Shown here one piece after another: positions 46,021-52,944 of a stretch of DNA of 64,000 nt (its first letter is position 1; every line of letters begins with the position of its first letter). The stretch spans positions 2,196-66,195 of the forward strand of contig JACRAL010000028.1 in the NCBI GenBank assembly GCA_016213435.1, written 5' to 3'. Made by a program: the position numbers and the translations under genes. Source of the DNA: Bacteroidota bacterium. GTDB lineage: Bacteria; Bacteroidota; Bacteroidia; Palsa-948. The notes under the pieces were generated by a model. That model worked only from the letters and a program-made list of their open reading frames with translations, did not search any database and was not told the origin of the DNA.

Positions 46021-46571
46021 TGACAGCATTTGCAACACAAATCCTAAACAACGGAGCCTCGCTGAAAATTATTTCAGCCGATGGAACTCGTAATATTTTG
46101 AAAAATCAAATCCATGAAGTGAGCGTAATCAACGACACGGTAATTAAAATTGATATTGGTCAGGGAGCGTTGAACAATATCTTCATCAATTTTCCCGAAG
46201 TCAGCAATCCTCAAACGCCAACTCCTGATGCACTCGTGGATGCAATCAACATAATGCTTCAAAATACTATTGTAATTCCTCCCGGCATTTCCACCGAGCT
46301 GAACCAACAAAAGGAAATTACGGACTTGGACAGCATAAAATCTTCCTTGCTGTTTCAGGCTCCGCAGATTTCCGATGAAACGAATCCGAAAACTATTTAT
46401 AAAGGATTCGCAGTTCCCGGCTCAAGAACTTCTGATGCAGTTTGGGCGATTCAGAAAATCACAAACAACAGGGGAATCTACACTTACCTGTGGGCGGGTG
46501 GAAATCAAAACTTTGACAAGGTTTGGGACAACCGAGCAACATTAATTTATCCGCCAAGTGCTAATGCGTAA
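46021..46571 (+). CDS. Hypothetical protein
   Basis: ATG at 46021 within the listed ORF 45936..46571; ends by overlapping the giant gene start. Confidence 0.4.
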
Positions 46572-49500
46572 GCATAAACCATATCAGGTAAAACCCGAAA
46601 TGATTTTCACGCTTGGGTATTTGCAGCAAGGCGAGATACCCGAAGTGAAACTGCGATTGAACAGGTCTTCCCGAAAAAAACTTTTCGGGAAGATTGGTTC
46701 ATCGAAAGATGTAGCAGATTTCATCCGTAAGATTTATAAACGCGGTGAAATTGAATTGCAGGAACAATTTATCGTGCTGTATCTCGACAGGGGAAATAAT
46801 ATTATTGGATTTTACAGGCATACCACAGGTGCGATAAGCGGAACGATTGCCGATGTGAGAATTATTCTTGCGGCTGCTTTGAAAAGCGCAAGCACTTCCA
46901 TTATTATAGCTCACAATCATCCAAGCGGAAACCTTCAACCAAGCCAAGCAGACATTGACCTCACAAAAAAGATAAAGGAAAGTGCGAACACAATGGATAT
47001 TTCCCTGCTTGACCATGTGATTGTAACAAAGGATGGTTATTATTCCTTCGGAGATGAAGGATTGGTTGGCTTGGAAGAAAATGAAATCGGTTTTGTAAAC
47101 AGCAAGCTCAAGCCGGATATCAATAAAGTGATTCAAGGCGATGTTCTCGAAACCCTAAAAGATTTTCCCGATGAGAGCGTGGACTGTGTTATCACTTCAC
47201 CTCCGTACTGGCAACTGCGCGACTATGGATGGAAAGGGCAATGGGGCTTGGAAAAAACTTTTGACAAGTACCTTGAGAATCTTTGGAAACTCATGGATGA
47301 AATCAGGCGCGTACTTAAACCGAAAGGAACTGTTTGGATTAATCTTGGCGACACTTACGGAACACAGTCGGGAACGGGCCGGGGAACGCAGTACATCAGC
47401 AAAAGCACAAAGCACCATGTAGAAAACGGAGCAACTCTCATCAAAGGAAAAGCTCCGCATAAATCACAATTATTAATTCCGCATCGCTTCGCTATCGGGT
47501 GTATGGAACGCGGATGGATTGTACGCAATGATATTATTTGGGCGAAGAAAAATTCAATGCCTGAAAGCGTGAAAGACCGTTTTGCAAAAAAGCATGAGTA
47601 CGTTTTCTTGATGGTAAAAGAAAAGGATTATTATTTCGATTTGGACAGCGTGAGAGAACCGCATAAGGCAGAATCAGTCGAGAGAACAAAGCGCGGATGG
47701 AACGGACACAGGGAAAAAGGAAGTTCGTATGAAAACATGGATGAAAAAAAGATGTGCCACCCTGACGGAAAGAATCCCGGAGACATTTCTGATTTTTGGA
47801 AAATTCAAAACAAAGGCGGACACGATAAACACTATGCAAAATACAGTTCCGACTTACTCACCAAGCCGATTCTTGCAGGTTGTCCCAAAGGCGGAATTGT
47901 ACTGGACCCGTTCTGCGGGACTGCAAGCACAGGCGTAAGGGCGATTGAACTCGGAAGAAAATTCATCGGCATTGAAGGGAAGAAAGAATACTGCCACATA
48001 GCCGAAAAGAATCTGAAAAATATTTCCCTGAACGGATTGGGATTACTCAGCACTATTCCCAAGTGGCAGTTCGTTGAAAAAGTTGAAAAGGATTTGGAGA
48101 AAAAAATTTCCTACAACAAACGCTCTATTGAAAAACTTGCAGCAACCTTCGGAATCCACGATAAAACTTTGGTGAAGGAACTTACAGAACTTGCTATTGT
48201 ACGCAGGGCAAGATCCCTCGCGCACAGTCAGGAAAGCGAAAAGGAAAAATTTGATTCCATTGTTGAGCTATACAACAGCCAGGTCAATCTTTCCCACCGC
48301 ACAAGCCAAAGTATTTTATTGCAACAATATTCTACGCCCGCGCCAATCACATTCCTCGCAGGAATATTTGTTGGCGCGGACAAAGGCGTTTCTGTTTTTG
48401 AACCAAGCGCAGGAAATGGATTATTGACGATTGCAGGAACAGAGCAGAATATTATTGTAAATGAAATTGATTCTGTACGCAGGGAAAATCTGCACACGCA
48501 GGGGTACAAAATGGTTTTGAACCGCGATGCGACAAAACCATTTCCTGAGTTTTATCAAAAGATGAGCGCAGTTATTACCAATCCCCCTTTCGGTACGCTT
48601 GATACCGAAGTGATGTACGATAACTTTCCGATTAAAACGCTCGACCACCTGATGGCTCTGCGTGCGCTCGATACGATGAGGGACAACGGAAAGGCATCCA
48701 TCATAATCGGTGGGCACACGCAATGGGATGAGAAAGGCAGAATACAGGCAGGAAAGAACCGAATCTTTTTCAATTATCTGTATAGCCGCTATAACGTAAT
48801 TGACGTAATCAATATTGACGGCAGTTTATATTCACGGCAGGGAACATCCTTCGATGTGAGATTGATTTTGATTGACGGCAGAAAAAAAAATCCGCAGGGA
48901 GCCGCGCCTGTAAAAAATTCCGAACTATCTAATACTGTAAAAACATTTGATGCTTTATACGAAAGGGTGAACGATGCAATTAGCGCAAGCGGGCTTTCGG
49001 AAATCAAAAGATTCAATTCTCTGAAAGAAAAATATCCCGATGTGGTTTTGCTTTTAAATACAGGAAGTTTTTACGAAACATTCGGGGAAGATGCTGTTGC
49101 AACCTCAAAAATTATCGGAACTGTTTTATCGCATCGCAACGGTATTCCCGTAACGGGCTTCCCGCTTGTTTCCCTCGACAGTTATTTATCAAAACTCGTG
49201 AGAAGCGGAAACAAAGTAGCGATTGCCGATGAATTACAAAATCCAAAATCAATGAAACAAAATATTTCTTCTTTAGAACGCGAAGCATTGGCTTTGCAAA
49301 GACAACTTTTAGGCGAGGAACTTGGCTCGCCCTACATTCCCGCTTCCGAATCCTGCGTTGTGCTGAATACGCAAGTTCCCGATTCGATGAGCTTTGAAAC
49401 GCAGAAAGCACTCGAACAAATCCGTGAAGAAGTTGGCGGAGACATTGATGCGTTTGTACGGCATAGATTAAATTTTCGTAGTAAGATGGAACTCTGCAAG

Positions 49501-52500: not shown

Positions 52501-52944
52501 ATTGGCAAGGCAATCAAAATAATTAAATCGCTAACCGATGGCGCGGCTATTCACACCAACAATGCTATCGGAATATTTCGTCAGGGGAACGCATACAAAG
52601 TTATTGTGCCGGGTTCGCGTGTTCAAGGCGGAGAAGTTTATCTCGATAAAGATTTGCTTGAACTCGTGGACGGAAATAATTTTGAAAAGGTGTCGGATAA
52701 AATGGTTGCGACTTTACCGCATAAAAACATCGAGCCGTTTGTAGAAATTCTTCAGAATAAATTTTCTTCTGCCGTTACGCTTACCGCAAGTCAGTTTTCA
52801 ATTATCAAAGACGAAAAACAGAAACGCACTTCCACACGAAAAAAAATTGAGCTTCCTCCAAAGCAGGATGAAAGTATCAATATAAAATTGTATGAACTCG
52901 AAGCAGAGGCGCTGGCATTGGAACTTGAATTACTCGCAGCATAA
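46564..52944 (+). CDS. Polyvalent protein: RadC-like JAB + beta-class DNA MTase (SPPY) + gamma-class N6-adenine MTase (NPPF) + DEAH/SNF2-like helicase + C-terminal extension
   Basis: RadC/JAB motif 'HNHPSG..PSQAD'. First MTase: 'DCVITSPPYW' (motif IV) followed by 'LDPFCGTASTG' (motif I). Second MTase: 'EPSAGNG' followed by 'ITNPPFG'. Helicase: 'GDQTGIGKGR' (Walker A), 'IIIMDEAHN' (DEAH) and a helicase C-terminal region. Total length ~2126 aa. An alternative GTG start lies at 46558. Confidence 0.85.
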   Translation: MRKHKPYQVKPEMIFTLGYLQQGEIPEVKLRLNRSSRKKLFGKIGSSKDVADFIRKIYKRGEIELQEQFIVLYLDRGNNIIGFYRHTTGAISGTIADVRIILAAALKSASTSIIIAHNHPSGNLQPSQADIDLTKKIKESANTMDISLLDHVIVTKDGYYSFGDEGLVGLEENEIGFVNSKLKPDINKVIQGDVLETLKDFPDESVDCVITSPPYWQLRDYGWKGQWGLEKTFDKYLENLWKLMDEIRRVLKPKGTVWINLGDTYGTQSGTGRGTQYISKSTKHHVENGATLIKGKAPHKSQLLIPHRFAIGCMERGWIVRNDIIWAKKNSMPESVKDRFAKKHEYVFLMVKEKDYYFDLDSVREPHKAESVERTKRGWNGHREKGSSYENMDEKKMCHPDGKNPGDISDFWKIQNKGGHDKHYAKYSSDLLTKPILAGCPKGGIVLDPFCGTASTGVRAIELGRKFIGIEGKKEYCHIAEKNLKNISLNGLGLLSTIPKWQFVEKVEKDLEKKISYNKRSIEKLAATFGIHDKTLVKELTELAIVRRARSLAHSQESEKEKFDSIVELYNSQVNLSHRTSQSILLQQYSTPAPITFLAGIFVGADKGVSVFEPSAGNGLLTIAGTEQNIIVNEIDSVRRENLHTQGYKMVLNRDATKPFPEFYQKMSAVITNPPFGTLDTEVMYDNFPIKTLDHLMALRALDTMRDNGKASIIIGGHTQWDEKGRIQAGKNRIFFNYLYSRYNVIDVINIDGSLYSRQGTSFDVRLILIDGRKKNPQGAAPVKNSELSNTVKTFDALYERVNDAISASGLSEIKRFNSLKEKYPDVVLLLNTGSFYETFGEDAVATSKIIGTVLSHRNGIPVTGFPLVSLDSYLSKLVRSGNKVAIADELQNPKSMKQNISSLEREALALQRQLLGEELGSPYIPASESCVVLNTQVPDSMSFETQKALEQIREEVGGDIDAFVRHRLNFRSKMELCKALSAEQIDAVAMAIYNIEARGQGMIIGDQTGIGKGRVAAGMIRYGVQQGLKPIFITEKANLFSDIYRDLVAIGSAHLVPFIVNGKESKTDIKDEDGNIIYQALPAHEQQKIFESEKVPAKFHFVVGTYSQFNSPEKKPEKPNFLRAIANGNIIIMDEAHNSSGSSNTGEFMQSVVADTKGVIFLSATFAKRPDNMPIYAMKTAISDANMTKDELVEAIIRGGVALQEVLSSQLVAEGQMLRRERSFEGVEVNYITLEDKEQEHKAVADNITEILRDIISFQKNFVDKQIDDLDKIAVAEGKEVKLREGTSQAGVDNQPYFSKVFNVINQMLFSIKAEAVAERAIMRLKEGKKPVIAFASTMGSFIEQMENDKGVTVGDGDVINADFSEVLKRGLEGILRYTEHDVNGEPTSKKFELSDLSQEAQAEYTRIMGKIKSASTGITISPIDIVIKKIQDAGYSVAEVTGRKYELQINPKTSKGLILQRRRINTNDAFRQFNNNEVDVLMINQSGSTGASAHAIPTAKVPASQVKQRAMIVLQAELDINTEVQKRGRINRTGQILKPIYDYVNSAIPAEKRLMMMLQKKLKSLDANTTSNQKQSTKILDVPDFLNKYGDKLVKEYLLENPETNELLNDPLKLKTTKQDDKENVEDAAHKVSGRVAVLSTKMQSDFYNEIAERYIDYSEYLKQIGEYDLEVEAMDLKAERINRNVIKMGKGGDSTFGDDSILETVKANVLKKPFSKSELANLLNESLGGKDAHAIKAKLQSEYETFIAGRLEEEIKEVNEKYDELIKEVPNEKKILKLKSEKERESEIRLRENELEQARDAQVEQTRKVFGNRAQYLERIFKYFFVGKRLNYPVQSYNEGQELVLATFLGFIIDKKKKNPYAPSAMKLRFAIANSNKYIAIPASYSDDITAIMGASSDAEEMDREQLLEEWEKAIKTNTVDRRTRHIITGNLLQAFSDFKGKLVSYTTSDGETKKGILMPENWIPQEHIGDKVVVPIGKAIKIIKSLTDGAAIHTNNAIGIFRQGNAYKVIVPGSRVQGGEVYLDKDLLELVDGNNFEKVSDKMVATLPHKNIEPFVEILQNKFSSAVTLTASQFSIIKDEKQKRTSTRKKIELPPKQDESINIKLYELEAEALALELELLAA

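Follow-up and report, generated by a model that had tools for sequence, protein, structure and literature searches.

A candidate counter-restriction protein with two DNA methylases and a strawberry-notch motor in a mobile element of Bacteroidota

The 64,000-nucleotide stretch of Bacteroidota DNA analysed here (contig JACRAL010000028.1; hereafter the window) contains an integrated mobile element of ~24.5 kb that includes one very large open reading frame (ORF). Five recognisable domains, each detected by HMM or profile, are fused in its single frame: a RadC-like JAB domain, two DNA methyltransferases (MTases) of the beta and gamma classes, domain I of MutS (MutS-I) and a strawberry-notch (Sno)-type superfamily 2 (SF2) ATPase. 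The encoded protein is probably an accessory counter-restriction enzyme that would methylate the DNA of its own element, a reading drawn from sequence comparison. With five domains, where polyvalent proteins are defined by at least two distinct effector or enzymatic domains per polypeptide, it is a member of that already described class and of its Sno-type subset, because each component seen is described by Iyer, Burroughs, Anand, de Souza and Aravind (2017, PMC5512222). As the class and each domain were catalogued in 2017 and close homologues are deposited, the protein itself offers little that is conceptually new; the more interesting lead is its unclassified, widespread host element and the methylase-swapping slot in which the gene lies.

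It is the content of this slot in sister elements that favours counter-restriction. Loci were retrieved through a different gene, encoding a 242 amino acid (aa) protein that is a hallmark of the element, so that the sample is unbiased with respect to the giant gene. Of the 26 informative loci, 15 have no giant gene, with the partner ATPase gene within 3–4 kb, five or six encode a (RadC)–gamma MTase–Sno protein, three a 668-aa fusion of RadC to an M.HhaI-like C5 MTase (E 3e-42) and one a stand-alone beta MTase 60% identical to the beta domain of the window protein. Slots without the giant gene carry a ~290-aa Dam-like MTase of the alpha class (FGGG...DPPY; DpnII M1 E 5e-13), which is found at 20 metagenome loci, and at 0–1 of 80 giant-gene loci; the window lacks it. 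What stays constant in the slot is a DNA methylase, and RadC is repeatedly placed ahead of methylases of unrelated classes. Those 15 sister elements retain the ATPase along with the other module genes, so the basic cycle of the element does not depend on the giant protein. Swapping at the slot thus points to the giant protein being an optional, interchangeable methylation module, and hence to counter-restriction. The one-locus natural series that results (Dam-like enzyme, beta MTase, RadC–C5 fusion, full giant) is a ready-made comparative experiment bearing on the reason that methylases become joined to a translocase in mobile elements and on the contributions of RadC and MutS-I. Representatives are the Dam-like gene of locus L117 (9128-10000), the RadC–C5 fusion of L159 (16908-18914) and the beta MTase of L110 (17558-18610). 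The Dam-like gene and the giant gene are mutually exclusive.

The original prediction, made from the sequence alone, had placed a RadC/JAB domain, two DNA MTases and a helicase in one chain. All four are found with their catalytic motifs intact, and MutS-I is additional to them (Table 1). Pfam and NCBIfam agree at the level of domains. RadC and N6_N4_Mtase were recovered as anticipated and N6_Mtase below threshold; the motor matched families other than the anticipated SNF2_N and Helicase_C. The RadC domain carries a complete JAMM motif (HxHx7Sx2D; HNHPSGNLQPSQAD, at aa 117), retained in 118 of 121 family members, and does not reach the NCBIfam cut-offs for full-length RadC because the domain alone is present. 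The first MTase has the motif order of the PF01555 beta class, with motif IV ((D/S)PP(Y/F); here SPPYW at aa 212) ahead of motif I (FxGxG; here DPFCGT at aa 448), and is nearest to type II MTase models (PADLOC E 1e-81). An SPPY motif is more typical of N4-cytosine MTases. Because the relatives of this domain in the PDB span N6-adenine enzymes (CcrM, MboIIA, RsrI, DpnA) and N4-cytosine enzymes alike, its target base may be either. That two MTases imply more than one specificity, as had been proposed, is plausible and is reinforced by the methylase-swapping slot, with the beta target left at these two candidates.

The second MTase follows a helical lead-in and carries YSTP at aa 589, EPSAGNG at aa 613 and NPPF at aa 673. 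A profile of nine sequences (the window protein, a Bacteroides phage, three plasmids and four database proteins) matched the HsdM subunit of EcoR124 in the PDB (E 1.9e-5), covering motifs I–VIII through to where the catalytic domain ends. Across these nine distant homologues there is no variation in the YSTP cap, EPxxGNG or NPPF, and the motifs are present in 120–121 of 121 close ones. On the strength of the invariant motifs and the HsdM match, the region is a gamma-class, EcoKI/TaqI-like adenine MTase, one in which a separate target-recognition domain is not recognisable.

The MutS-I segment aligns with residues 18–101 of Taq MutS (E 1.4e-13), where GSFYETFGEDA lies opposite GDFYECFGEDA and the Phe-X-Glu mismatch contact is retained; an acidic helix, SLEREALALQRQLL, directly follows the domain. 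The motor had been described as a DEAH/SNF2-like helicase. The GIGKGR (aa 1010) and DEAH (aa 1135) motifs are indeed present, together with QKRGRINR (aa 1527), but the type is strawberry-notch and not SNF2: Pfam matches are to AAA_34 (E 2.5e-20), Helicase_C_4 (E 3.8e-19) and ResIII (E 4.9e-9), and the pairing of AAA_34 with Helicase_C_4, with Walker A, DExH and motif VI, places the domain in the Sno/SBNO family. The JAMM, Walker A (GxGKGR), DExH and QxxGRxxR motifs are kept in 99–121 of 121 family members.

Beyond the DEAH helicase, the C-terminal ~900 aa had been taken as poorly characterised and the C-terminal third as free of any recognised domain. Neither description survives, as the helical insert and the second Sno lobe (aa 1438-1675) account for the sequence up to aa 1675, and ~450 aa are left unmatched. 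This tail (aa 1676-2126) had no match in a Pfam scan, nor did its profile match any PDB sequence. An AlphaFold2 model (pLDDT 77.8) comprises a beta hairpin, an antiparallel helical hairpin of ~90 residues, alpha/beta domains bearing an invariant ITGNLLQAF...GKLVSYTT...KGILMP block and a terminal acidic amphipathic helix, YELEAEALALELELLAA. Searched against 1.84 billion representatives, the tail profile finds 1300 clusters (834 at E<=1e-10). The tail always follows the Sno motor, standing at the C-terminus of 1200–2400-aa proteins and internally in giants of 3000–5400 aa. Because of this internal position, the tail is best regarded as an integral part of the MTase–Sno unit and not simply as a terminal packaging signal or address label, which counts against the earlier suggestion that the C-terminal third carries packaging or injection signals. 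A Sno-specific winged helix-turn-helix at the C-terminus is mentioned by Iyer et al. (2017, PMC5512222). An acidic amphipathic helix of the type ELEAEALxLELEL closes the protein in most family members (in the window at 52891-52941, aa 2110-2126) and recurs just after MutS-I modules, both here (49270-49326, aa 903-921) and in relatives. It may serve as a zipper, for docking or as a site of processing.

Homologues of the protein are plentiful in Bacteroidota, chiefly in Chitinophagaceae, and a scan of one genome per species found the giant gene in at least 288 species-level genomes. The invariant core in these relatives is (RadC)–gamma MTase–Sno ATPase–tail. Among 120 homologues, 97 consist of the core alone (RadC–lead-in–gamma MTase–Sno–tail, ~1727 aa), eight add MutS-I, six add both the beta MTase and MutS-I as in the window, and three add the beta MTase; a further three have the beta MTase without RadC. 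The beta MTase is present in 13 of the 120. The corresponding BLAST-based count for MutS-I (14 of 120) is an underestimate, as Pfam detects diverged copies in further inserts at the same position (slot 2, between gamma MTase and motor), which in relatives holds none, one or two MutS-I-like domains. Because backbones 88–93% identical to the window protein differ in cassette content (P0005 and P0008, for example, are cassette-free), the beta MTase and MutS-I are cassettes, recently gained or lost on backbones of 85–95% identity. Neither GC nor GC3 clearly marks the two cassettes as recent imports (GC3 0.33 for MutS-I against ~0.43 elsewhere). In a distant homologue encoded by Chroococcidiopsis plasmid pB (WP_250017822.1, locus L008), MutS-I lies near the C-terminus (aa 1992-2088), and the domain has therefore been recruited to the family at more than one position.

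How does the protein compare with characterised or catalogued systems? The survey of Iyer et al. (2017, PMC5512222) describes gamma (EcoKI/TaqI-like) MTases with a TP cap and NPPF upstream of an SF2 ATPase, catalogues Sno-like ATPases with a C-terminal extension of their own in some polyvalent proteins, and lists RadC and MutS-I among the polyvalent domains of Bacteroidetes, in each case on mobile elements. Measured against that domain list, the earlier description of a polyvalent protein on a mobile element stands. The window protein differs in lacking ArdC-N, which accompanies ~80% of MutS-I occurrences in that survey, in having an extra beta-class MTase, and in residing in an element that can be recognised neither as a tailed phage nor as a conjugative element. 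No LPD36 domain was found ahead of the gamma MTase (Pfam, aa 501-819, E<=0.1, N6_Mtase only), the helical lead-in having no verifiable GxGU-type match.

The further label 'DarB-type' holds as an architectural analogy only. P1 DarB (YP_006479.1, 2255 aa), the archetype of the methylase–helicase dyad (Iyer et al. 2017, PMC5512222), is of similar size, places a gamma adenine MTase at the N-terminus ahead of an SF2 ATPase, and has a proposed antirestriction role. Its Y(S/T)TP and EPSAGxG motifs align with those of the window protein, which possesses the EcoKI/TaqI-like gamma MTase, N-terminal TP cap and NPP(Y/F) of the DarB family. However, BLASTP aligns the MTase core alone (26% over 146 aa, E 0.004), the DarB motor is of the SNF2-rel_dom plus Helicase_C type where that of the window protein is AAA_34 plus Helicase_C_4, motif IV reads NVPF in DarB and NPPF here, and RadC, the beta MTase, MutS-I and a homologous tail are all absent from DarB. 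Orthology with DarB was rejected, given that homology does not extend over the full length and that the helicases belong to different families.

Closer relatives of the core occur in a phage and on plasmids. The gp3 protein of Bacteroides phage BS-TP4 (PQ571277.1, 5391 aa) contains a homologous gamma MTase–Sno–tail module (35% identity over aa 536-2056), but within a far larger protein that also has ddrB-ParB, InPase and LPD38 domains and whose gene adjoins that of the portal; RadC, the beta MTase and MutS-I were not detected in it. The same core, at 27–49% identity over aa ~530-2066, is found in 'strawberry notch C-terminal domain-containing proteins' of conjugative and other plasmids from Persicobacter (pPP10, WP_338399628.1), Pseudomonas (P. 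aeruginosa pNY7610-NR, WP_023100646.1), Yersinia (Y. ruckeri pYR7) and cyanobacteria. These differ in their N- and C-terminal additions, and pPP10 encodes the MTase in an upstream ORF of its own.

In the counter-restriction reading, the Sno motor would translocate along duplex DNA carrying the gamma adenine MTase. As this MTase is borne by a motor and has no recognisable separate target-recognition domain, adenine methylation could be broad, fast and processive. The beta MTase would contribute a second, sequence-specific mark, MutS-I might tether the enzyme to distorted or unpaired DNA (ends, nicks, replication or entry intermediates), and RadC, recurrent ahead of MTases, may process nucleic acid or the protein itself. 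Whether the enzyme would act in the producing cell before DNA exit or in a new host after co-delivery, as P1 DarB does, we consider roughly equally likely. The MTase–SF2 dyad and the antirestriction role of P1 DarB provide a precedent (Iyer et al. 2017, PMC5512222). Several points weigh against this reading. The gamma MTase as a single sequence scores under the Pfam cut-off (N6_Mtase, 15.4 bits against 20.4), and no measured methylation, ATPase or antirestriction activity was found for any Sno-type member. MutS-I, RadC and the neighbouring RadA-like ATPase would equally fit a role in repair or recombination, and orphan MTases can serve replication or packaging control instead of antirestriction. 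Moreover, counter-restriction is deduced from the methylase side, and the type of the element is not established.

A special case of the favoured reading, and one compatible with it, is that the protein, as the original prediction had it, follows the strict DarB mode, being packaged or transferred with the DNA and acting in cis in the new host. By analogy this is possible, though we think it the less probable outcome. P1 DarB is a head component that acts in cis (Iyer et al. 2017, PMC5512222), the BS-TP4 gene for the homologous MTase–Sno–tail module adjoins the portal gene, and in the tailless membrane phage SSIP-1 (Salisaeta icosahedral phage 1, NC_017983) structural annotations are given both to gp43, which has a gamma-type MTase within its 2319 aa, and to the ATPase gp40; giant MTase proteins, as SSIP-1 gp43, BS-TP4 gp3 and DarB indicate, can be virion cargo. 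The SSIP-1 'structural protein' labels (gp34, gp40 and gp43) are GenBank notes. The RadA-like ATPase and a 502-aa protein of the window element are homologous to SSIP-1 gp40 (E 2.2e-10) and gp34 (E 5.8e-12), respectively, and the polyvalent gene closes an operon that holds lysis-like and putative structural genes. Nevertheless, its slot-mates in sister elements are ordinary MTases of 290–670 aa, which in phages act before packaging; they argue that delivery is not required. In addition, scans of the ~20 neighbouring ORFs (Pfam, PHROGs, PADLOC) returned only amidase/endolysin, ATPase, helix-turn-helix (HTH) and integrase matches, with no capsid, portal, terminase, type IV secretion system or relaxase, and the part shared between SSIP-1 gp43 and the window protein is the MTase core only, at a marginal E of 4e-4.

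Alternatively, the Sno helicase, MutS-I, RadC and the RadA-like ATPase might together form an engine that processes element DNA in replication, recombination or repair, to which the MTases are add-ons. The element has no other recognised replication genes, the RadA/AAA_25-like ATPase is linked to the ORF in 75 of 80 loci and MutS-I retains its mismatch-contact motif. We judge this unlikely, as the dispensability of the giant gene, absent from most sister loci where the ATPase and the other module genes are retained, weakens any replication or repair role; the slot has a DNA MTase as its sole constant feature, and the gamma MTase motifs are invariant.

Less probable still, indeed very unlikely in our estimation, is a single-chain restriction-modification-like or exclusion system (type ISP- or BREX-like) that uses RadC as the nuclease and shields the lysogen from invaders. 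An MTase and an SF2 motor in one chain do resemble type ISP or type III logic, defence cargo is frequent on mobile elements, and RadC has been proposed as a nuclease (Iyer et al. 2017, PMC5512222). This role is weakened by the lack of nuclease and specificity domains and by PADLOC matches limited to an MTase: no PD-(D/E)xK, HNH, Mrr or target-recognition domain appears in the Pfam, NCBIfam or PADLOC output, and among the 25 PADLOC matches listed only the beta MTase is represented, with no helicase or nuclease models. RadC-less variants also exist, and the slot alternates with orphan MTases that have no nuclease partner.

The possibility of gene decay, or of several genes joined in a chimeric assembly, for which the unusual length of the ORF alone speaks, is refuted by 6.4 kb of stop-free sequence, by retention of all catalytic motifs, by synteny in 80 genomes and by four database proteins from independent samples with 84–87% identity across 99% of its length. 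Two of these four are nameless and the others are a 'strawberry notch family protein' and, in a JGI record, a 'DNA modification methylase'; an exact-sequence look-up found no database record identical to the window protein. The plus-strand frame runs uninterrupted from either GTG at 46558 or ATG at 46564. Homologue N-termini begin MRKHK... or MIF..., matching the ATG, so that the protein has 2126 aa; the original prediction was right about a single real frame, and its 2128 aa is the count from the GTG. This ATG lies within the preceding ORF (45936-46571), overlapping it by 8 nt, and so couples translation of the gene to the long, co-oriented rightward operon of the element.

Table 1 Features of the polyvalent gene and its host element, in window coordinates
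Feature	Position	Strand	Details
Whole polyvalent ORF	46564..52944	+	2126 aa; internal stops = 0
RadC-like JAB domain	46696..47064	+	aa 45-167; Pfam RadC E 2.8e-37; HxHx7Sx2D intact
Beta-class N6/N4 DNA MTase, optional cassette (slot 1)	47179..48009	+	aa 206-482; Pfam N6_N4_Mtase E 3e-52
Helical lead-in and gamma-class adenine MTase	48061..48933	+	aa 500-585 and aa 586-790; YSTP cap, EPSAGNG, NPPF
MutS domain I, optional cassette (slot 2)	49003..49260	+	aa 814-899; Pfam MutS_I E 1.7e-19
Strawberry-notch-type SF2 ATPase	49474..51588	+	N lobe aa 971-1242, helical insert, C lobe aa 1438-1675
Conserved tail	51589..52941	+	aa 1676-2126 (451 aa); fold unmatched
Left-end regulatory genes	31970..35076	+	HTH_3 + Peptidase_M78 (ImmA/IrrE-like), sigma-r4/alpha-CTD-like protein, HTH proteins
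Upstream module	35668..46571	+	~18 co-oriented conserved ORFs without family matches
502-aa protein	36147-37655	+	related to structural-annotated SSIP-1 gp34
242-aa candidate jelly-roll protein	38379-39107	+	element hallmark
Lysis-like cassette	43789-45809	+	Amidase_2 43789-44226; endolysin-like (phrog_3000) 44184-44891; small membrane proteins 44884-45809
Partner gene	52984..54459	+	491 aa; C-terminal RadA/Sms-like RecA-fold ATPase
Large serine recombinase	54788..56512	+	Pfam Resolvase + Recombinase + Zn_ribbon_recom; phrog_95 integrase E 3.9e-74
tRNA-Ser(GGA) and terminator (56346-56314)	56350..56441	-	host side of right junction

The element occupies 31.9–56.3 kb of the window, with all of its genes on the plus strand, and is integrated in a Bacteroidota chromosome. 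Ordinary chromosomal genes lie to the left (PorV, the nuo operon, isoleucyl-tRNA synthetase and an RND efflux operon, up to 31.3 kb) and to the right from 56.5 kb (a TPR protein, a peroxiredoxin and an SDR protein). An ImmA/HTH regulator, a serine integrase, a tRNA junction and the host-gene flanks, together with plasmid and phage homologues, mark it as mobile. The upstream module is syntenic in 39–62 of 80 related genomic loci, and the partner ATPase, which follows the polyvalent gene in 75 of them, matches RadA in a profile search of the PDB (E 1.7e-6) as well as AAA_24/AAA_25 and phrog_6891. The membrane proteins of the lysis-like cassette are of 80 aa and of 228 aa, the latter with an N-terminal transmembrane segment and a coiled coil. 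Scans for sigma-70 promoters and terminators gave results at chance level, these models being ill-suited to Bacteroidota promoters.

The right junction is placed near 56.3 kb because of the position of the tRNA-Ser gene and its terminator, which overlap the final ~65 codons of the recombinase ORF in antisense. Homology stops at about residue 497 and the ORF reads on for those ~65 codons (54788-56512 / 56314-56441), a tail that probably arose when the frame read through the attachment junction. The ends of the island showed no att direct repeats, as expected for a recombinase of the serine type. In one IMG/VR contig (L090), the serine recombinase stands at the opposite end of an otherwise collinear element, a placement consistent with a circular intermediate or with another polarity of integration.

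What kind of element this is can be approached through its 242-aa hallmark and through SSIP-1, entered in a review as '(single jelly roll?)' (PMC6260650). About 1570 database proteins are homologous to the hallmark (E <= 0.001). Only two IMG/VR contigs carry it, 50,697 phage records contained no tblastn match to it, its profile found nothing significant in the SSIP-1 proteome, and Foldseek against BFVD returned TM-scores <=0.35. A table of viral capsid comparisons set beside the Foldseek result gives, as unlabelled values, 7.3 for the SPMV capsid protein, 7.0 for SPV1 VP4, 6.8 for the STIV major capsid protein, 6.2 for PRD1 P3, 6.1 for the FLiP major capsid protein and 5.7 for HCIV-1 VP7. SSIP-1 gp43 (YP_006383736.1) resembles the window protein as a giant with a gamma-type MTase (EPSAG, NPPF) encoded in a cluster with homologues of the window ATPase and 502-aa protein, but has ParB_N in place of Sno helicase, RadC and MutS-I. 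Identity as a tailless phage is thus possible for the element, on the basis of these comparisons, and not established. The larger proposal would make the element a widespread, unrecognised lineage of temperate, tailless SSIP-1-like (jelly-roll, membrane) phages or phage-plasmids, with giant versions of the protein packaged and delivered like gp43 and DarB from one methylase-swapping hot-spot. We regard it as doubtful; if true, that hot-spot would range from a 290-aa Dam-like enzyme up to a 240-kDa RadC–MTase–MTase–MutS-I–Sno protein.

The 53-kb circular plasmid pPP10 of Persicobacter psychrovividus (NZ_AP025302.1; loci L002 and L009), which encodes Rep and ParA/ParB and is typed as non-mobilizable by MOB-suite, carries a related module comprising the 502-aa and 242-aa proteins, the split MTase and Sno protein, the ATPase and an amidase. 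It is possibly a phage-plasmid, and it is a relative open to experiment. Other cultured carriers of the element family are Lacibacter sp. MH-610 (NZ_CP116002.1, at 2.32–2.34 Mb), Puia dinghuensis, Nemorincola caseinilytica and Flaviaesturariibacter aridisoli. The element is widespread in Chitinophagaceae, the family being common in those of soil and freshwater, and annotation tools for phages and conjugation essentially fail to see it. At its left regulatory end in the window, a coding stretch of ~110 nt occurs in three diverged copies (33835-33945, 34431-34494 and 35203-35316; 67–81% identical), which indicate three paralogous small HTH genes.

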